From an uncultured Moraxella sp. (GTDB lineage: Bacteria; Pseudomonadota; Gammaproteobacteria; Pseudomonadales; Moraxellaceae): 34,751 bases of DNA. The stretch spans positions 1-34,751 of the forward strand of contig CAKAQU010000001.1 in NCBI GenBank assembly GCA_916720335.1, written 5' to 3'. Of this stretch, positions 12,980 through 34,751 are shown piece by piece. Below the pieces are notes generated by a model, which was not told the origin of the DNA, did no database searches, and was given only the letters and a program-made list of their open reading frames with translations. Each line of letters opens with the position of its first letter. Positions within the stretch are counted from its first letter, which is position 1. The position numbers were made by a program, and so were the translations under genes.

Positions 12980-13826
12980 AAACCCCAATCAGTCCGATTT
13001 GCCAAATCCCATCAAAACCGACCAACAAAGCGAAAAAGCGTGGCGAGTTTTGATGCGAATTTTGTGGCTAATGATTGCGCTTTTAGGAAGCGGCATTGTT
13101 TGGCTTTACACTTCTTTTGAAACCTTATCTAGCGATGTTAATAACCGTTTAGAAAAAATCGCCACTGTCGACACTAGACTTAACGATATGGATGACCGCT
13201 TATTTGCGATGACATCGTTATATGGGCAGACGCCTACGGAAAAAAAGGTTGGTGAAAATCACGATGGTGCTTTGGTGCAAGTAGAAATGGCTTTAGCAAA
13301 CGAATTGTATAAACGTGGCGAGTATGAAAAAGCTCTAACTGTTTTATCGGTGATTCGTTTGCAGTTAAATGATTTAAAAGGTTTATCTGCGCCTATTAAA
13401 TCAGCACTTATCAAAAGTTTGCAAATGGATATTGAATACATTACTGCCTTAAAAAAGCAGCCTGATTCTTGGCAGGCGCACATCATTAAAATGCAAGATA
13501 TTCAAGCATTTTTACGCAGACAAACCAACCAAACCAAAAATATTACTTACAACGACCTGTTATTGCATGATAGTAGCATGTTGTTATCGCTGGCAATCAG
13601 TGCTGCCACTCATCGCGATAAGGATGTGATGACAACTTATTTACAAGAATCCAAAAGTCAGTTAGAGGCTCATATTTTGGCTGTGCAAGGCAAATTTCGC
13701 CTAGAAAAAAGCGAATCGGCAACTTTAGAAACGCTTGATGACGCACTGTATGCACTTAATGATTTGCTTGCTAACAGTCCAAAAAGTACCGATTTGCACA
13801 GTATGCAATTACTTAATTTTAATTAA
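12963..13826 (+). CDS. Membrane-anchored coiled-coil protein, HemX-like
   Basis: Single N-terminal TM helix, helical body, follows hemCD (synteny-based call). Confidence 0.5.
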   Translation: MIMHPKNPNQSDLPNPIKTDQQSEKAWRVLMRILWLMIALLGSGIVWLYTSFETLSSDVNNRLEKIATVDTRLNDMDDRLFAMTSLYGQTPTEKKVGENHDGALVQVEMALANELYKRGEYEKALTVLSVIRLQLNDLKGLSAPIKSALIKSLQMDIEYITALKKQPDSWQAHIIKMQDIQAFLRRQTNQTKNITYNDLLLHDSSMLLSLAISAATHRDKDVMTTYLQESKSQLEAHILAVQGKFRLEKSESATLETLDDALYALNDLLANSPKSTDLHSMQLLNFN

Positions 13827-13848
13827 TGTTAAAAATCAGCCCAATGTA

Positions 13849-14964
13849 TTAAGCAAACCAAACCAGCTCTTGCAGTGCTTGTATCAAACGTAAGTTTTGT
13901 TCAGCTGTGCCTACAGTGATGCGTAAATAATCTTTGGTGCGCACATGGTTAAAATGACGAACCAAAATGCCTTGTTCGCGTAGTTTATCAGCAATATTTT
14001 GAGCGCTGAGCGTTTTGTGGTTGGGTTTAACAAAGACAAAATTGGTTGCTGACGGTAAGACCTCAAAGCCCAGTGCGGTTAGTGATTTTTCCAGTTTATT
14101 TCTTAAGTGTATGACTTCTAATCGTTTTTCTTCAAAATATTCAGAATCTGCAATGCTAGCCGCTGCCCCTATTTGTGCTAACATATCTAAAGGATAACTG
14201 TTAAAACTGTTTTTTAGGATTGTTAAAGCGGTAATTAAACTTGGGCAAGCAAACGCCATACCAACTCGCAAGCCTGCCAGTGCGCGAGATTTTGAAAAAG
14301 TTTGTACCACAACAATGTTATCAAATTCTTTAATCAATCCAATTGCCGATGCGTTTTTTGGTTCGTCAGCATAATCAATATAGGCCTCATCAATGACAAT
14401 CACTGAATTTGGGTGTTCGCTGGCAAGTTTACGAATTTTATTCAAGCCCAATAAAATACTTGTGGGCGCATTAGGGTTTGCCAAGATAATGCCGCCACAA
14501 GGAATGCGATAATCATCGGTATCAATGCTAAAATCAGCCTTTAGAGGGATGCTTTGAGTGGTAATGCCATAATGTTGAGCATAAACAGGATAAAAACTGT
14601 AACTGACATCAGGCATCAAAAGCGGTCGGTCTTTGACAAAAAAACACGAAAATATCAATGCCAGCACTTCATCAGAACCATTGCCAACAAAAACATTATC
14701 GTGTGTCATTTCTGGATAATAGTGATTGTAATATTTTACGATTTCATCACGCAGAGTAATTGATTCAGGTTCTGGATATAGCCGTAAATTATCACTGCTG
14801 TTTGCTAAAGCCTCACGCATAGCGTTGATAGCTTTTGGGCTTGGCGGAAAAGGATTTTCATTAGTATTGAGTTTACATAAGTTTTCTTGTTTGGACTGTT
14901 CGCCGGGTACATAAGGATTAAGATTGCGAACCTTGGCGCTCCAAAGACGGTTGTTAATGGTCAT
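13849..14964 (-). CDS. hisC: Histidinol-phosphate aminotransferase
   Basis: KLNTNENPFPPS, GNGSDE, DEAY, TFSKSRALAGLRVG; ATG 14964 (GTG 14973 alternative). Confidence 0.95.
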   Translation of the reverse strand: MTINNRLWSAKVRNLNPYVPGEQSKQENLCKLNTNENPFPPSPKAINAMREALANSSDNLRLYPEPESITLRDEIVKYYNHYYPEMTHDNVFVGNGSDEVLALIFSCFFVKDRPLLMPDVSYSFYPVYAQHYGITTQSIPLKADFSIDTDDYRIPCGGIILANPNAPTSILLGLNKIRKLASEHPNSVIVIDEAYIDYADEPKNASAIGLIKEFDNIVVVQTFSKSRALAGLRVGMAFACPSLITALTILKNSFNSYPLDMLAQIGAAASIADSEYFEEKRLEVIHLRNKLEKSLTALGFEVLPSATNFVFVKPNHKTLSAQNIADKLREQGILVRHFNHVRTKDYLRITVGTAEQNLRLIQALQELVWFA

Positions 14965-29702: not shown

Positions 29703-30812
29703 ATGTTATATTGGCTCATTGATTATTTAAATATTTTAAGAAGTGAAACCATTGCTTCGCTTGCTTTAAGAAGTCTTTTGGCGGTTATTACCAGTTTGGC
29801 AATTGTATTAATGCTGGGCAAACCAGTTATTGCCTACCTTAGAAATTTAAAATACGGTCAAGCTGTTCGTGATGATGGCCCTAAAACCCATTTGGTAAAA
29901 CAAGGTACTCCAACGATGGGCGGGGTGCTGATTTTAGCGGCAATTGGAATCAGTACGCTATTATGGTCAGATTTATCCAATCCTTATGTATGGATTTTGA
30001 TGGCGGTGATGGTGATTTTTGGAGCGGTTGGCTGGCGTGATGACTGGCTAAAAATAAAACATAAAAACCCACAAGGTTTGGTTGCTCGTAAAAAATATTT
30101 TTGGCTATCGGTTGGGGCAATTTTAGCAGGCGGGAGTTTGTATTATCTTGCTACCAAACAAAGTCCTACTACAATGAATGCCATGCAAGACGTGCTGATT
30201 CCTATGTTTAAAGATTGGATTATTCCATTATCAGCCATCCCTTATGGTATTGGTTTTATGGTTTTGACTTACTTTACCATTAATGGTTCATCCAATGCGG
30301 TCAATTTAACCGATGGCTTAGATGGACTGGTCATTTTACCAGTCGTCTTGGTAGCAGCTGGATTAGGGGCGTTTGCTTATGCATCAGGGCACGCTGAATG
30401 GTCTGTTTATCTTAATGTGCCTTACATTACCTATAACACAGAAGTGGTGGTAGTTTGCGCATCTATGATTGGAGCTGGTTTAGGATTTTTGTGGTTTAAT
30501 GCCGCTCCTGCTGATGTCTTTATGGGTGATGTTGGAGCGTTATCACTTGGCGGTATGCTTGGTACAATGGCAGTCATGACCCGTCAAGAGCTCGCTTTTG
30601 TGATTATGGGTGGAATTTTTGTTGCTGAAGCTTTATCGGTAATTTTGCAAGTAGGTTCGTATAAACTGCGCAAAAAACGTATTTTTTTGATGGCGCCTTT
30701 ACACCACCATTTTGAAGAAATGGGCTTAAAAGAAACCAAAGTTGTCATTCGTTTTTGGATTGTATGCATTGTTTTGGTGGTTTTGGGGTTAATGACCTTA
30801 AAACTTCGTTAA
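29703..30812 (+). CDS. mraY: Phospho-N-acetylmuramoyl-pentapeptide transferase
   Basis: [33 protein letters not shown]. Confidence 0.98.
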
Positions 30813-30840
30813 AAGAATTAAAAAACTTAATAAAAAAAAC

Positions 30841-30868
30841 TTGCAATCTAAAAATTTTTTGGTATAAT
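30841..30868 (+). promoter_or_regulatory. Sigma70 promoter of tRNA-Gln
   Basis: TTGCAA-16-TATAAT with extended -10 TG. Confidence 0.75.
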
Positions 30869-30879
30869 TCTGCACTCAT

Positions 30880-30952
30880 AGGGGTATCGCCAAGTTGGTA
30901 AGGCATCAGGTTTTGATCCTGACATTCGTTGGTTCGAGTCCAGCTACCCCTG
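30880..30952 (+). tRNA. tRNA-Gln (TTG), CCA not encoded
   Basis: Acceptor AGGGGTA/TACCCCT, anticodon arm TCAGG-TTTTGAT-CCTGA, T-arm GTTGG-TTCGAGT-CCAGC, discriminator G followed by CTT. Confidence 0.96.
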
Positions 30953-30974
30953 CTTAAATTTTTCGTAAATTTCG

Positions 30975-31008
30975 AAAAAAGCCAGTTAAGAAATTAACTG
31001 GCTTTTTT
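30975..31008. terminator. Bidirectional terminator between tRNA-Gln and the RNA repair operon
   Basis: AAAAAAGCCAGTTAA-gaaa-TTAACTGGCTTTTTT. Confidence 0.9.
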
Positions 31009-31028
31009 CTATTCTAAATTTTTCTAAC

Positions 31029-31700
31029 CTAAACTATGAACGATTGCTCAGCATTCATCATTGTAAGCCAGTTTTTGATTTGTTTGGCGGTTTTATCACA
31101 ATCAGGCGACGTTAAAGGCATTTCATTAATATTAAAGTGATTTACTAATGGTAAATTTGCCAAAAAATTATCAATATCATCCAAGCTCAATAATCGTCCA
31201 TGTAAATCAAATCCCACATTTAAAGCTCGTCCTTTGACGGCTGCCAAACGGTCGTGTAGATGCCCATATAAATGATACCAGCCTTTATGACAACCTTCCC
31301 ATTCTATCATTGGGTAATGGCTTAAAATTAGGGTACGTTTATATTTATCTTGATTGAGACGAATTTTGCCATACTCTGTAATGGATGATAGCGCAGGCTT
31401 GCCACAGGCTTTTTTGGTCGTTAAAAACGTTTGTGTGTTTTGTCGAATAACATCGTCATGATTGCCTAAAATTAAATGATGCGTTCCCTTTAATTGCAGC
31501 AACACATCCAAAATTTCTTGTTTGTGATGAGAAAACGATATGTCGCCTAAATTATAAACAACATCGTCATCACCCACGACACTATTCCATTGATTGATTA
31601 AAAATTCATTCATCAGATTAATGTCTTTTGGGCGAAAGGTTGGGCAAAATTTAATAATATTTTTATGAGAAAAATGTAAATCCGAAGTAAAATAAATCAT
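31029..31700 (-). CDS. Calcineurin-like metallophosphoesterase
   Basis: DLH, LGD, GNHD, HYP, GHLH metal-binding motifs; 19 nt after the ligase stop. Confidence 0.9.
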   Translation of the reverse strand: MIYFTSDLHFSHKNIIKFCPTFRPKDINLMNEFLINQWNSVVGDDDVVYNLGDISFSHHKQEILDVLLQLKGTHHLILGNHDDVIRQNTQTFLTTKKACGKPALSSITEYGKIRLNQDKYKRTLILSHYPMIEWEGCHKGWYHLYGHLHDRLAAVKGRALNVGFDLHGRLLSLDDIDNFLANLPLVNHFNINEMPLTSPDCDKTAKQIKNWLTMMNAEQSFIV

Positions 31701-31719
31701 ATTAAAACCTATTGCTTAG

Positions 31720-33219
31720 TTAAATTTTTTCCAAAAAATTTTGGATAAAGGTAATTTTATCAAGTTCAGACAATTGATTAAAAATATCTTTATTTTCTTT
31801 GATGTGGTCGATCAAAGGGTAATATTCTTCATCAACGTGGTTTTTATTCAATTTTCTATCGATGCTTTCTTCATTGCTTCTTCCTAAAAATTTAGAAACC
31901 AAATAAAAGGGGGATTTTAATTTAAATAACAGCTCTTTGGTATGACTGTCAAAAACCATAAAACCTTCATGTTTGACAGTTTTTAATAAGGTTTTTGCCT
32001 CTTTAAAACTTATATTGCGAATCATCTGTGGTCTTTTTAAGACTATTTCTTTTTGCGATTGATTAAAATCATCAGCAATTTGATTTAATCTTTCTTCGCT
32101 AAATTGTTCAGAAGTCTTGACATTAATCACACCAATTAGAGTTTCCCCAAAATCTTCTTTGATGATATGAACATCGTTTTTGTCAGTAATCTCAAATAAA
32201 AATGTATGATTGGGATATTGTTTAAATAAGGATTCATACTTTTGACAATGATTTTTCGTCATTTTAGCAAAATCACTGTCTAAAGAACCAGTTGTGGAGT
32301 ATAGAACTTGATGGTTAAAATCGCTATCAAAACTGTCGTGATTTTTATCTAAATCAACATAAGTACACACACCTAAAAAACCATTGACTTTAACCACCAA
32401 ATCCACCAAATGATTATCGTCAATATCAATGGGGTATTTGCTGGTTTTACTAACGCGCTCACTGTAATTAAATACTTTTTTAAATGGACGAATGATAATA
32501 TTATTGGCTTTATCCATAACAAGCCCACGCATTTCCAATAAAGCGTCATCAAAATTATTGTTATAAAACACTTTACGAGCGTATTTTAATACTTTTAAAT
32601 TAGGATAATTTTTAGAATATTTGGCAGTAAAATTACCATAATTAAAAGCCAGATATTCATCACTGATGTATGTATGCTTTTGACTATCGTATTCCAATGG
32701 TTTTTTATCAAAAATTCTAAGTTGTTCAATTTTTTCTTGAATTTCTCTAGTCATTGGTCTAATGGGCGCTACGTCAATCTCATCTTTGAGTTTATTTTTA
32801 TCCAAACGAATGTAGGCAGCCAAAACCTCAGCTTCTTTAACATGATGGATATTTTCAAAAAAATTATGCAAACGATAGACCGTGCTTTTAAAATGATATT
32901 TAGTTGCTAGCGCCAAAAGATGTTTGCACAAACTAATTTTTTGATTGGTGTTTGAATTAATCACCAAAACATTTTTATTAGGATGTTCTTTACCGTATTT
33001 AAAGGCATTTTTCATCATTGTCATGCCCTGATTTGCCGCTTTATCTAGTCTTTCGGGCGTCCAGTAATAATTACCATGTTCATCTGTTAAAAGAAGGTCA
33101 TTTTCTACATGAACAATCAGTGCGTCTGGGAATTTTTGCAAAAATTGAGAAATTGTTTCTTTGGCAAAGGTAGATTTTCCAGAGCCTTGGTGACCGCGAA
33201 TTAAGATAAATTGTTGCAT
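31720..33219 (-). CDS. P-loop polynucleotide-kinase-like domain fused to a T4 Rnl1-like ATP-dependent RNA ligase
   Basis: N-term GHQGSGKST, SNTN, NIHHV; C-term EMRGL, RPFKKVFNYSE, motif I KVNG (K277), STTGS, FLFEI, EGFMV, FKLKS. Confidence 0.85.
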   Translation of the reverse strand: MQQFILIRGHQGSGKSTFAKETISQFLQKFPDALIVHVENDLLLTDEHGNYYWTPERLDKAANQGMTMMKNAFKYGKEHPNKNVLVINSNTNQKISLCKHLLALATKYHFKSTVYRLHNFFENIHHVKEAEVLAAYIRLDKNKLKDEIDVAPIRPMTREIQEKIEQLRIFDKKPLEYDSQKHTYISDEYLAFNYGNFTAKYSKNYPNLKVLKYARKVFYNNNFDDALLEMRGLVMDKANNIIIRPFKKVFNYSERVSKTSKYPIDIDDNHLVDLVVKVNGFLGVCTYVDLDKNHDSFDSDFNHQVLYSTTGSLDSDFAKMTKNHCQKYESLFKQYPNHTFLFEITDKNDVHIIKEDFGETLIGVINVKTSEQFSEERLNQIADDFNQSQKEIVLKRPQMIRNISFKEAKTLLKTVKHEGFMVFDSHTKELLFKLKSPFYLVSKFLGRSNEESIDRKLNKNHVDEEYYPLIDHIKENKDIFNQLSELDKITFIQNFLEKI

Positions 33220-33264
33220 AGTCTCTCACAATCAATAAATTAATAAAATGAATAAGTTATCTTA

Positions 33265-33280
33265 AGCAATGGCTATACCA
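33265..33280 (-). promoter_or_regulatory. Sigma54 (-24/-12) promoter of the kinase-ligase/phosphoesterase operon
   Basis: Minus strand TGGTATAGCCATTGCT: GG-N10-GC; predicted +1 near 33254, about 35 nt before the ATG. Confidence 0.8.
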
Positions 33281-33308
33281 TTTTATAAAATAATGATAAA
33301 AATTTTAT

Positions 33309-33321
33309 TAATTATTTGAAA
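33309..33321 (-). promoter_or_regulatory. Possible IHF site
   Basis: TTTCAAATAATTA, one mismatch to WATCARN4TTR, just upstream of the -24 element; AT-rich context weakens the match. Confidence 0.3.
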
Positions 33322-33421
33322 ATTAAAGAAATTTTTATTTTTATATAAAATAACCTTATAAAATTTATGTTAAAATACTAGCTTATTTTCTAATTTTTAT
33401 TTCATTTATATAAAAAAAGCT

Positions 33422-34751
33422 ATGAATAAATTGACTAAAAACCCAACTAAAAAAACAGTGATGATAAGTTTTTTGGGTACAGTATTGGATGCAGGTCTTG
33501 GAAAAAAACGTTGGAAAAGATGGCGACCTAACGTGGACATTCATCAATGCGCATCAATTGATGTTGTTGAACTGTTTGTGGCGGATAAGTTTGTTACACT
33601 TGGTGAAAAAATCAAACAAGACATCGCTGAGATTTCGCCCAATACCAGTGTAAATCTTATCCCAATGGATTTAGATAATCCTTGGGATTTTAGTGAAGTG
33701 TATGAAAAACTATCCGATTGGGCGGCGGTCTATCCTTTTGATACCCAAACTTATCAATATTGGACACACATTACCACAGGAACTCACGTTGCCCAGATTT
33801 GTTTGTTTTTATTGGTGGAAAGCAGACAAATTCCCAGTGTACTGTTACAAACTGCCCCACCTAAAAAAACCGAAGATTCAACCACCCATTTAGGTGAGTT
33901 TGAACTAATTGATTTGGATTTAACCCGTTATGATAATATTGCCAAACGATTGGCGCAAGTTAAAAATGACGCTCAAAAATATCTAAAAAACAACATCGCC
34001 ACCAAAAATCTTGCATTTAATCAAATGATAGCTGAAATACAACAAGTGGCGATGAATTCATCAGCACCAATCTTATTAATGGGCGAAACAGGCGTTGGTA
34101 AGTCATTGTTAGCCAAAAGAATTTTTGAGCTTAAAAAAGCACGACATTTAATCAGTGGACAGCTAATTGATGTAAATTGCGCTACATTAAAAGGCGATGG
34201 CGCGATGAGTGCGCTGTTTGGTCATGGCAAAGGCGCATTTACTGGAGCGGTTTTGGGGCGAGATGGCTATCTAAAATCTGCTGATAAGGGCGTGCTGTTT
34301 TTAGATGAAATTGGTGAACTTGGACTAGATGAGCAGGCAATGCTGCTAAAAGCTATTGAGGATAAACAGTTTTATCCCTTAGGCTTGGATAAACCCGTAT
34401 CATCAGATTTTATATTAATTGCTGGCACGAATAAAAATCTGCAAACAGAAGTATCGGCAGGGCGTTTTCGTGCCGATTTATATGTGCGAATCAATATCTG
34501 GCAATATCATTTACCCAAGTTGTTTGACCGTAAAGAAGATATCGCCCCCAACATTGACCACCAACTGATTTTGGCAAGTACAGAAATTGGACAAAAAGTG
34601 CAATTTGATAAGTTGGCTTATCAGCTTTATTTGGAGTTTGCACTATCAAGTAGGGCAATTTGGTCAGGTAATTTTCGGGATTTGTCCGCCAGTATTTTGC
34701 GTATGGCAACCTTAAATCAACAAGGATTTATTACTCAAGCAATTGTTAAAA
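33422..34751 (+). CDS. rtcR: RNA repair transcriptional activator RtcR (CARF + sigma54 AAA+), partial at right edge
   Basis: Not in ORF track (no stop in window). Manual translation: KKTVMISFLGTVLD..RWKRWRP..NPWDFSEVY..HITTGTHVAQIC..IDLDLTRY..GETGVGKS..FGHGKGAFTGA..FLDEIGELGLDEQAMLLKAIE..WSGNFRDL, matching motifs I recall from E. coli RtcR. Confidence 0.95.
   Translation, partial: MNKLTKNPTKKTVMISFLGTVLDAGLGKKRWKRWRPNVDIHQCASIDVVELFVADKFVTLGEKIKQDIAEISPNTSVNLIPMDLDNPWDFSEVYEKLSDWAAVYPFDTQTYQYWTHITTGTHVAQICLFLLVESRQIPSVLLQTAPPKKTEDSTTHLGEFELIDLDLTRYDNIAKRLAQVKNDAQKYLKNNIATKNLAFNQMIAEIQQVAMNSSAPILLMGETGVGKSLLAKRIFELKKARHLISGQLIDVNCATLKGDGAMSALFGHGKGAFTGAVLGRDGYLKSADKGVLFLDEIGELGLDEQAMLLKAIEDKQFYPLGLDKPVSSDFILIAGTNKNLQTEVSAGRFRADLYVRINIWQYHLPKLFDRKEDIAPNIDHQLILASTEIGQKVQFDKLAYQLYLEFALSSRAIWSGNFRDLSASILRMATLNQQGFITQAIVK

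Follow-up and report, generated by a model that had tools for sequence, protein, structure and literature searches.

Phage T4 repairs tRNA with Pnkp (pseT) and the RNA ligase Rnl1 (rnlA), which together counter the anticodon nuclease PrrC, and in the RtcR-rtcBA system RtcA regenerates cyclic-phosphate ends. The Salmonella form of the latter is laid out as rtcR / rsr-yrlBA-rtcBA (PMC7790460, PMC3854526), and the CARF domain of RtcR has been reported to bind tRNA halves that carry a terminal 2',3'-cyclic phosphate (PMC7790460). We analysed a 34,751-nt stretch of DNA (the window), which is the entire contig C1 of a metagenome-assembled genome (MAG) of an uncultured Moraxella sp. (1.68 Mb, 183 contigs, 86.8% complete). 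The right end of the window carries rtcR divergent from two genes: LIG, encoding a P-loop kinase fused to a T4 Rnl1-type ligase, and MPE, encoding a metallophosphoesterase. The results suggest that these two genes form an RNA heal-and-seal operon under RtcR/sigma-54 control, a reading to which we assign a probability of roughly 0.7.

The locus shares with the canonical RtcR-rtcBA system the regulator family (a CARF-like domain joined to a sigma-54 AAA+ domain), the divergent layout and the -24/-12 promoter, and its Neisseriaceae relatives also have the Rsr and YrlA-like RNA companions. It differs in that the predicted ligase is an ATP-dependent Rnl1-type enzyme for 3'-OH/5'-P ends fused to a 5' kinase, in that a metallophosphoesterase stands where the cyclase RtcA would stand, so that ends would be stripped and rebuilt and not used directly, and in that rtcB is unlinked and no RtcA was found in the genome. 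The kinase and ligase families and the predicted heal-then-seal chemistry are those of T4 Pnkp and Rnl1, whereas the LIG kinase is fused to the ligase and the T4 kinase to a phosphatase, MPE is calcineurin-type and the T4 phosphatase a DxDxT (HAD) domain, and the locus is chromosomal with an RtcR/sigma-54 layout; the C-terminal helical region of LIG also appears shorter than that of T4 Rnl1 in the predicted model. Clostridium thermocellum Pnkp-Hen1 likewise combines a P-loop kinase, a calcineurin-type phosphoesterase and an adenylyltransferase ligase, but the Moraxella parts are divided between two polypeptides in another domain order, the ligase belongs to the Rnl1 clade, and no Hen1 was found in the genome. 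Fungal and plant Trl1 (ligase, kinase and cyclic phosphodiesterase) resembles LIG in joining an Rnl1-clade ligase and a P-loop kinase in one protein; in LIG the order is reversed, with the kinase first, and a metallophosphoesterase takes the place of the 2H cyclic phosphodiesterase. Trl1 leaves a 2'-PO4, which is removed by Tpt1.

A first-pass annotation, made from the letters of the window, had called the pair a phage-style kit, and the label is apt, as phage modules of the same parts exist. LIG matched 738 phage records, all below 60% identity, and the best matches (Ralstonia phage RSP15 and the Pseudomonas phiPsa374 group; about 34-38% over both LIG domains) have clusters with a kinase, an Rnl1-like ligase and a phosphoesterase. 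Unlike the Moraxella locus, these phages have kinase and ligase as separate neighbouring genes, with phosphoesterase and HD phosphohydrolase genes nearby and no RtcR. The fusion and the predicted RtcR control are, on the sequences compared, bacterial and not phage features. RtcR homologues are also reported to be attached to CoCoNuT type IV restriction systems (eLife 2024, PMC11090510), where an RtcR-type CARF/sigma-54 activator is likewise wired to a non-rtcBA output; the output there is a defence nuclease system and here a predicted repair kit. Such published principles limit the novelty of the locus: RNA-repair operons are known to be modular, and RtcR homologues to be linked to other outputs. 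The abstract of Burroughs & Aravind 2016 is said to describe modular shuffling of RtcB and ATP-grasp ligases, kinases, phosphatases and Ro/Y RNA, "a novel tRNA-like molecule", and ligases that displace each other in operons. As far as could be seen, the arrangement of RtcR with a kinase-Rnl1 ligase is experimentally uncharacterised, in agreement with the first-pass annotation, which knew of no characterised example: full-text literature, with supplements and Burroughs & Aravind 2016 outside its scope, yielded no paper linking RtcR to an Rnl1-type ligase, and the passages covered of Das & Shuman 2013 (PMC3854526) and Chen 2014 (PMC4201824) make no mention of this combination.

The rtcR-LIG-MPE locus of the window

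Following murE, murF and mraY, the segment consists of tRNA-Gln(UUG), a hairpin, MPE (-), LIG (-) and rtcR (+) (Table 1), and the list of open reading frames (ORFs) and their translations confirmed the layout first drawn for 31029-34751. All three reading frames are uninterrupted, no phage genes adjoin them, and the GC content drops from 0.39-0.40 to 0.30-0.33 across 31-34 kb, the last 3.7 kb of the window. The rtcR product matched PF06956, a CARF-like N-terminal domain, over model positions 1-182 of 183 (E = 1.3e-65) and the AAA+ domain Sigma54_activat PF00158 (E = 1.1e-47), and its Walker A (GETGVGKS), Walker B (LFLDEIGEL) and GAFTGA motifs are readable in the translation, as originally described. 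PADLOC matched it to RtcR--CARF_AAA_HTH (E = 1.2e-193). Against NF038308 it scored 623.5 bits over model positions 2-432 of 530, below the cut-off of 650 because the gene is truncated: full-length RtcR of relatives has 525-553 aa, and the C-terminus (the last ~85 residues with the helix-turn-helix, HTH, beyond the contig end) was not found in the rest of the assembly. This is the sole RtcR of the genome, and rpoN lies on C27.

A sigma-54 promoter (TGGTATAGCCATTGCT on the operon strand) lies 46 nt upstream of the LIG ATG. The pattern TGGYAY-N5-TTGCW occurs twice in the window against 0.40 expected and 36 times in the genome (1.68 Mb, both strands), and a chance match in the ~200-bp gap between rtcR and LIG is therefore unlikely. 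The second window match, at 14248-14263(-), is inside a 374-aa ORF and was judged to be chance. About 30 nt upstream of the promoter there is a candidate site for integration host factor (IHF), to which little weight is given, as it has one mismatch and lies in an AT-rich background. Beyond the end of MPE, folding revealed a hairpin of -21.3 kcal/mol (z -5.1; 0 of 200 shuffles as stable) with a U-run on both strands; a consensus scanner missed it since the A/U extension of the hairpin absorbs the T-run. The promoter before LIG, to which a conserved -24 element corresponds in relatives, and the operon's own terminator are thus both present as the first-pass annotation had placed them.

LIG residues 197-478 matched the T4 gp63/Rnl1 family phrog_562 (E = 4e-38) and residues 1-185 the polynucleotide kinase phrog_505 (E = 2e-7) of the PHROGs. 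With hhalign, a 35-sequence LIG profile aligned with T4 Rnl1 in the ligase domain (probability 94.6%, E = 7e-8) and with residues 1-108 of T4 Pnkp in the kinase domain (probability 95.9%, E = 6e-9). R231, K248, F250, K277 and G280 of LIG align with R54, K75, F77, K99 and G102 of T4 Rnl1, and E343, E418, G419, K433 and K435 with E159, E227, G228, K240 and K242; all ten are invariant in the 35 sequences except K433 (nearly invariant, 90% or more), and they correspond to 10 of the 11 T4 Rnl1 residues that we take to be essential from Shuman laboratory mutagenesis. K277 (KVNG) is the motif I lysine, and nucleotidyltransferase motifs I, III, IV and V were all matched. In the kinase domain, Walker A (G9-T17) and D41, which aligns with T4 Pnk D35, presumably the catalytic Asp, are invariant in the 35 sequences, and, of the substrate-binding arginines of T4 Pnk, R38 aligns with L44 and R126 falls outside the alignment. 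The AlphaFold2 model of LIG (predicted local distance difference test, pLDDT, 91.3; predicted template modelling score, pTM, 0.80) gave T4 Rnl1 as the top three Foldseek matches (9do4, 5tt6 and 2c5u; E 5.5e-12 to 2.1e-11), followed by Trl1 ligase domains, while its N-terminal domain matched PSTK, T4 Pnk and the fungal Trl1 kinase. In the PDB, the LIG profile matched the C. thermocellum Pnkp kinase domain (4mde, 4gp6) and T4 Pnk with E of only 0.007, and phmmer returned chance matches only.

No Pfam or NCBIfam match of LIG rose above threshold; in Pfam, AAA_33 scored 18 bits (cut-off 27), and PF09511 gave no match at E 0.01. Relatives 57-67% identical to LIG carry PF09511. Homologues at E ≤ 0.001 number 393, of which the best 120 are 40-67% identical and mostly carry PF09511 with or without PF13671, and source annotation calls the homologues "RNA ligase" in Moraxella, Faucicola, Neisseria, Alysiella, Kingella, Cardiobacteriaceae and Pasteurellaceae. 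The kinase and Rnl1-type ligase calls first made from the letters are borne out by the PHROGs, hhalign, the fold and the conserved motifs, and not by Pfam, where RNA ligase and AAA_33 both stayed below threshold. PADLOC placed LIG and MPE in no known or candidate defence system.

MPE matched phrog_547 "phosphoesterase" (E = 1.2e-48), and its profile matched PDB 1xm7 (Aquifex aq_1665; E = 1.7e-11). Five calcineurin-type metal motifs, D7-x-H9, G52-D53, G79-N80-H81-D82, H128 and G146-H147-x-H149, are invariant in 12 sequences. The score against Pfam Metallophos_2 was 15.6 bits for a cut-off of 27, and NCBIfam gave nothing above threshold. These matches and motifs uphold the original metallophosphoesterase call. 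MPE may strip 2',3'-cyclic or 3'-phosphates from RNA in the manner of the C. thermocellum Pnkp metallophosphoesterase domain. The MPE proteins of two relatives (L030:10315-11244(+) and L037:6246-7181(-)) have an extra N-terminal region of ~90 aa that the window MPE lacks.

The window is free of rtcB, rtcA, rsr and hen1, as the first-pass annotation had noted, and this holds for the window but not for the genome, which has rtcB on C16 (3225-4346). Its flanks are an unidentified 241-aa ORF and a UvrD/Rep-like helicase; no rtcR lies beside it, and a pattern search of its upstream region showed no -24/-12 motif. A separate rtcB locus, as had earlier been considered, does exist, and RtcR might serve it as well. 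Searches of the 86.8%-complete genome did not find RtcA, Ro60/Rsr or Hen1 (best Hen1 match, TIGR04074, 27 bits against a cut-off of 340). With rtcB among unrelated genes and RtcA not found, the locus is not a canonical rtcBA system, nor is it a Pnkp-Hen1 system, Hen1 being below the cut-off and kinase-ligase and MPE being separate genes. The description of the pair as standing "instead of rtcBA" has to be given up, since every RtcR-LIG genome of the genus (14 of 14, the window's own counted) also has an unlinked rtcB. LIG-MPE is an additional or alternative output and not a replacement of RtcB in the cell. The genome also encodes a homologue of the RNA 2'-phosphotransferase KptA/Tpt1 (G000:C22:12231-12728(-), E = 1.4e-48), which is relevant if the ligase leaves a 2'-phosphate junction and keeps a 2'-PO4 route possible.

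Conservation and linkage in Moraxellaceae and Neisseriaceae

Across 301 Moraxellaceae genomes, LIG was found in 24, including 14 of 41 of the window's genus, 7 of 20 of genus g9, 1 of 73 of genus g20 and one weak partial match in g7. MPE accompanied LIG in 21 of 21 fetched loci. In the window's genus, rtcR is the divergent neighbour of LIG in 12 of the 14 genomes with LIG (in G133 it is split in two); the exceptions are G185, with rtcR on another contig, and G083, without RtcR. Seen from the regulator, 14 of 41 genus genomes have RtcR and 13 of these carry LIG; the 14th, G113, has a canonical rtcR-rtcB pair. In other genera rtcR is divergent from rtcB (sometimes with rsr or rtcA) or from rsr alone. 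The chromosomal context of LIG-MPE differs between species. A related-locus search with a single protein as query returned 1 locus.

In 11 relatives (L031 covered to -450), the LIG operon of G185 included, the motif TTGGCA[CT]-N5-T[TC]Gnn precedes either LIG or an RNA gene upstream of it; the -24 element is TGGCAC in 10 of them and TGGCAT in L037, and the -12 element varies. AT-rich repeats, an AATCAA-N4-TTA IHF-like site and TTGGCAC-N5 are found alike in LIG-type loci and in the canonical rtcR-rtcB loci L080, L085 and L089. The divergent adjacency, the -24 element, this canonical-like promoter layout and a separate RtcR clade (below) point to control of the kinase-ligase/MPE pair by RtcR, as had been proposed from the window.

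The genome G185 has a divided arrangement. Its rtcR is divergent from a tRNA-like RNA and rsr (L090, C56), while LIG, a 154-aa ORF and MPE lie on C35 (L032) behind their own TTGGCAC-N5 promoter. This arrangement suggests an RtcR regulon with at least two promoters; tRNA-like T-arm fragments also occur upstream of LIG in L032. Some relatives also encode a conserved protein of ~260 aa with an N-terminal CxCxxC motif, here called X, between LIG and MPE or before LIG (Table 1). Neither Pfam nor NCBIfam nor PADLOC matched protein X; the window lacks it, and it was not found in the genome.

Among 176 Neisseriaceae genomes, 72 had LIG matches, of which 58 with a near-full-length LIG were kept and 14 (fragments or kinase-only N-terminal matches of ~150-170 aa) were dropped. 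A full RtcR N-domain was present in 56 of the 58, and the 57th, G411, has a fragment at a contig edge. LIG and rtcR share a contig in 44 genomes; they are 0.23-10.8 kb apart and always divergent in 42 of these, and 39.6 kb and 2.1 Mb apart in the other two. Nine loci were fetched: rsr lies between rtcR and LIG in seven and two are compact and window-like, and MPE is downstream of LIG in seven, beyond rtcR in one and outside the stretch in one. The one rtcR-rsr gap searched (1.1 kb) holds, at L107:3318-3854, three tandem YrlA-like RNAs of 62.9, 60.8 and 39.2 bits, below the YrlA gathering score of 69, with E down to 1.2e-13. The usual Neisseriaceae order is rtcR, YrlA-like RNAs (from this one gap), rsr, LIG and MPE, which in gene content mirrors the Salmonella rsr-yrlBA-rtcBA order with LIG and MPE in the apparent place of RtcB and RtcA.

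A midpoint-rooted tree of 24 RtcR sequences, in which kin are not independent, united the 14 RtcRs from LIG-carrying genomes in one clade (support 100/100, branch 0.54). The clade includes the rtcR of G185 and the unlinked rtcR of a Conchiformibius MAG (Neisseriaceae), and the other 10 sequences come from Moraxellaceae loci in which rtcR adjoins rtcB, rsr or neither of them, and not LIG. This pattern fits co-inheritance or co-transfer of one RtcR type with LIG, as judged from the tree. The survey of rtcR neighbourhoods thus revealed a linkage to the kinase-ligase/MPE pair that is conserved in more than 50 Moraxellaceae and Neisseriaceae genomes. The locus is not a one-off but a compact form of a widespread system of these two families, often with Rsr, Y-like RNAs and protein X.

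The predicted repair circuit and its alternatives

The observed genes, motifs, fold, promoter and terminator, the rpoN gene, and the linkage and shared ancestry of one RtcR type with LIG suggest the following circuit. The CARF-like domain of RtcR would sense RNA damage, by analogy with Salmonella as tRNA fragments ending in 2',3'-cyclic phosphate, and RtcR would oligomerise and open the sigma-54 promoter, giving a transcript that encodes LIG and MPE. MPE would take off the 2',3'-cyclic or 3'-phosphate, the N-terminal kinase of LIG would phosphorylate the 5'-OH, and the Rnl1-type domain would join 3'-OH to 5'-P with ATP via K277-AMP, which is the chemistry of T4 Pnkp and Rnl1 and not that of RtcB. 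Such a circuit would be self-limiting, since the cyclic-phosphate ends sensed by RtcR would be removed by MPE. Ligand, induction, enzyme activities, substrates (tRNA, tmRNA or other) and feedback are modelled here on RtcR biology, on T4 Pnkp/Rnl1 and on a published summary of ATP-grasp RNA ligases, which are reported to work with polynucleotide kinases and phosphoesterases (PMC7824862, section 3.4.9).

Several points weigh against this reading. Its support consists of anatomy, conservation and linkage, and activity and induction are predicted. Activation of E. coli RtcR is reported to need CARF-bound RtcA and RtcB (PMC9650030), and RtcA was not found in this genome. RtcR might also serve the unlinked rtcB, yet no -24/-12 motif was seen upstream of that gene. 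The rtcR gene is cut by the contig end, so that its HTH is seen in neither window nor assembly. The -24 element of the window is TGGTAT, against TGGCAC in relatives, and the -12 elements of relatives deviate from TTGC. Five of the seven LIG genomes of genus g9 (G008, G073, G090, G105 and G150) and G083 have no RtcR, and the upstream regions of seven RtcR-less loci (L042-L046, L048 and L049, from g9, g20 and G083; six RtcR-lacking genomes plus L049 of G119, where rtcR is unlinked) have no -24/-12 motif, five of them (L042-L046) showing a TTGACA-type motif. At the protein level, the Pfam and NCBIfam matches of LIG and MPE are all sub-threshold, T4 Rnl1 K119 aligns with T310 and T4 Pnk R38 with L44 of LIG, the nearest solved relative of MPE (aq_1665) is uncharacterised, and the predicted MPE model (pLDDT 63) is too poor for a fold search.

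The same parts could serve ribonucleoprotein maturation, turnover or signal reset, if the real substrate were a dedicated non-coding RNA (Y-like or tRNA-like, with Rsr) or if MPE mainly quenched the signal. Relatives in which LIG is co-transcribed with a tRNA-like RNA (six rtcR-RNA-LIG loci and L004) or follows rsr and YrlA-like RNAs speak for such a role, as does the presence of the same RNA beside rtcB in L085 and L089. We nevertheless consider it unlikely, as the window and its genome lack both the RNA and rsr and yet keep RtcR-LIG-MPE, and the closest precedents, T4 Pnkp/Rnl1 and the phage modules, are reported to repair tRNA (PMC7824862). It is also conceivable that adjacency does not mean control, with LIG-MPE independent of RtcR, or RtcR directed to a target elsewhere such as the unlinked rtcB, and the -24/-12 motif unused. 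The six complete or near-complete genomes with LIG-MPE and no RtcR, which have no -24/-12 upstream and in four cases a TTGACA-type motif, agree with this, and so do the position of the G185 rtcR beside RNA and rsr with LIG on another contig and the imperfect -24 hexamer of the window. The LIG operon of G185, however, keeps TTGGCAC-N5 and an IHF-like site, as fits a regulon; together with the linkage in more than 50 genomes, the separate RtcR clade and the lack of a visible -24/-12 motif upstream of unlinked rtcB, this makes a mere neighbourhood quite unlikely.

DNA as the substrate, with the kit cleaning and sealing nicks with 3'-P/5'-OH ends after DNA damage, would agree with the induction of the Salmonella RtcR operon by DNA-damaging agents and with a DNA-repair role discussed for RtcB and Rsr in the same report (PMC7790460). 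It is highly improbable in view of the top fold and profile matches, which are RNA ligases (T4 Rnl1, Trl1) and RNA/tRNA kinases, and of the operon companions in relatives, which are the RNA-binding Rsr and tRNA-like RNAs. The low GC relative to the flank, the adjoining tRNA gene, the phage modules as closest non-bacterial relatives and the chromosomal context that varies between species could all be expected of a phage- or island-derived counter-defence cassette carried as a remnant without a host role. No phage genes adjoin the locus, though, its frames are intact, catalytic residues are kept in 35 (LIG) and 12 (MPE) sequences, and many species couple the pair to a sigma-54 regulator of host type, so that an idle remnant is barely credible. 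An RtcR/sigma-54-controlled heal-and-seal operon is thus the reading that we prefer.

A tRNA-like RNA in related operons and the wider meaning

In six loci of the same genus the sigma-54 promoter is separated from LIG by a tRNA-like RNA of about 233 nt (230-234 nt). Other copies precede rsr in G185 and the X-LIG-MPE genes of Conchiformibius, and in two rtcB-type loci the RNA stands between rtcB and rtcA (L089) or behind rtcB (L085) (Table 1). Its acceptor stem of 7 bp contains a G3:U wobble in 11 of 12 sequences; the 3' ACCA is encoded, a T-arm is present, and a large insert occupies the site of the anticodon arm. In an alignment of the 12 sequences fitted to the model, which favours the pairing figures, 95.0% of cells were paired compared to 34-58% with slid partners, and 49 of 72 pairs had changed on both sides, a strong covariation; 0 of 500 shuffles reached these values. 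From its position, the RNA appears to be transcribed from RtcR-type sigma-54 promoters, in LIG-type operons as well as in rtcB-type ones.

Against Rfam it gave only sub-threshold matches to YrlA (22 bits) and tmRNA (15.6 bits), Rfam at the gathering threshold returned only the two tRNAs for five relatives plus the window, and ARAGORN made no tRNA or tmRNA call for it in relatives. A search of the window's genome showed it to be absent there. Matches of 20-28 bits to the RNA model were set aside: five loci that were checked are ordinary tRNAs, the rest were read likewise, and none was counted as a member. The tally of 46 of 151 for the model consists mostly of ordinary tRNAs and includes an unpublished genome (G057), on which no claim rests. 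Separately, a leader with hairpins and a block resembling CCTGAGCTACGACCC is conserved ~330 nt upstream of LIG in L042-L046 and L048 and may represent a further RNA element. In the window, ARAGORN reported an odd 94-nt "tRNA-???" with a two-base anticodon at 13779-13872(-), which Rfam did not confirm and which is probably chance.

Further observations concern the setting of the locus. The LIG-MPE cassette comes directly after murF-mraY both in the window (29703-31029) and in the Conchiformibius MAG (L004:1005-6391), in opposite orientations and at a break in the dcw cluster; the position may be a shared insertion hotspot or a coincidence. Several public sequencing runs yielded assembled contigs that are near-identical to the stretch or diverge from it by 2-3%. 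One metatranscriptomic library had an identical 244-nt contig inside rtcR (33631-33874) and no other part of the locus, which is uninterpretable; neither finding was used as evidence.

Table 1. Features of the locus in the window, followed by the protein X and tRNA-like RNA genes of related loci
Feature	Position	Strand	Remarks
tRNA-Gln(UUG)	30880..30953	+	left edge of the low-GC segment; flank, not a component
Bidirectional intrinsic terminator	30974..31009	.	between tRNA-Gln and the MPE gene end; by folding
MPE, calcineurin-type metallophosphoesterase, putative 2',3'-cyclic/3'-phosphate end healer	31029..31700	-	223 aa
LIG, P-loop kinase fused to T4 Rnl1-type ligase	31720..33219	-	499 aa
LIG C-terminal ligase domain, ~aa 175-499	31720..32697	-	T4 Rnl1-family, predicted ATP-dependent
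LIG N-terminal kinase-like domain, ~aa 1-170	32710..33219	-	P-loop polynucleotide-kinase-like
Sigma-54 type -24/-12 promoter of the LIG-MPE operon, TGGTAT-N5-TTGCT	33265..33280	-	pattern match; read 33280-33265 on the operon strand
rtcR 5' part, 443 of ~530 codons	33422..34750 (element to 34751)	+	open at contig end
Protein X	L030:9509-10291	+	
Protein X	L037:7183-7998	-	
Protein X	L034:2949-3722	+	
Protein X	L042:7180-7998	-	
Protein X	L043:9482-10261	+	
Protein X	L049:9521-10309	+	
Protein X	L004:3423-4202	+	
Protein X	L114:6044-6802	+	
tRNA-like RNA	L033:9534-9766	-	
tRNA-like RNA	L034:1183-1416	+	
tRNA-like RNA	L036:9510-9743	-	
tRNA-like RNA	L039:7753-7982	+	
tRNA-like RNA	L041:9518-9751	-	
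tRNA-like RNA	L091:9283-9516	+	
tRNA-like RNA	L090:3765-3996	+	
tRNA-like RNA	L004:3121-3362	+	
tRNA-like RNA	L089:4732-4963	-	
tRNA-like RNA	L085:11481-11748	+	
tRNA-like RNA	L098:1501-1765	-	
tRNA-like RNA	L099:1501-1714	+	

Tentatively, and with more doubt than confidence, the two kinds of operon can be read together as RtcR sensors that run two chemically opposite arms and share a tRNA-like RNA not described before. The RtcB/RtcA arm would use and regenerate cyclic-phosphate ends, and the Rnl1-kinase/MPE arm would erase them and so shut off its own inducer. The tRNA-like RNA, common to both arms in many hosts, would have the topology of an unpermuted counterpart of YrlA, and it could act as a decoy, scaffold or sentinel substrate for anticodon nucleases, or even be charged in the manner of tmRNA. 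The window locus, with sensor and kit and neither RNA nor Rsr, would then be a minimal, cell-owned anti-ribotoxin system.

The locus bears on the purpose and the RNA targets of RtcR-controlled repair, as it offers a natural experiment in which one sensor family is kept and a predicted ATP-dependent heal-and-seal kit replaces RtcB/RtcA as the output. It poses two questions, whether cyclic phosphate is the conserved input and how the output chemistry shapes feedback by erasing or regenerating the signal. LIG is a compact bacterial kinase-ligase for RNA tool development, and the tRNA-like RNA would join the few tRNA mimics that are connected with RNA repair. Because Neisseriaceae and Moraxellaceae from animal and human mucosa commonly carry the system, it may affect the tolerance of these bacteria to ribotoxins, contact-dependent toxins, phage-triggered anticodon nucleases and ribosome-targeting stress.

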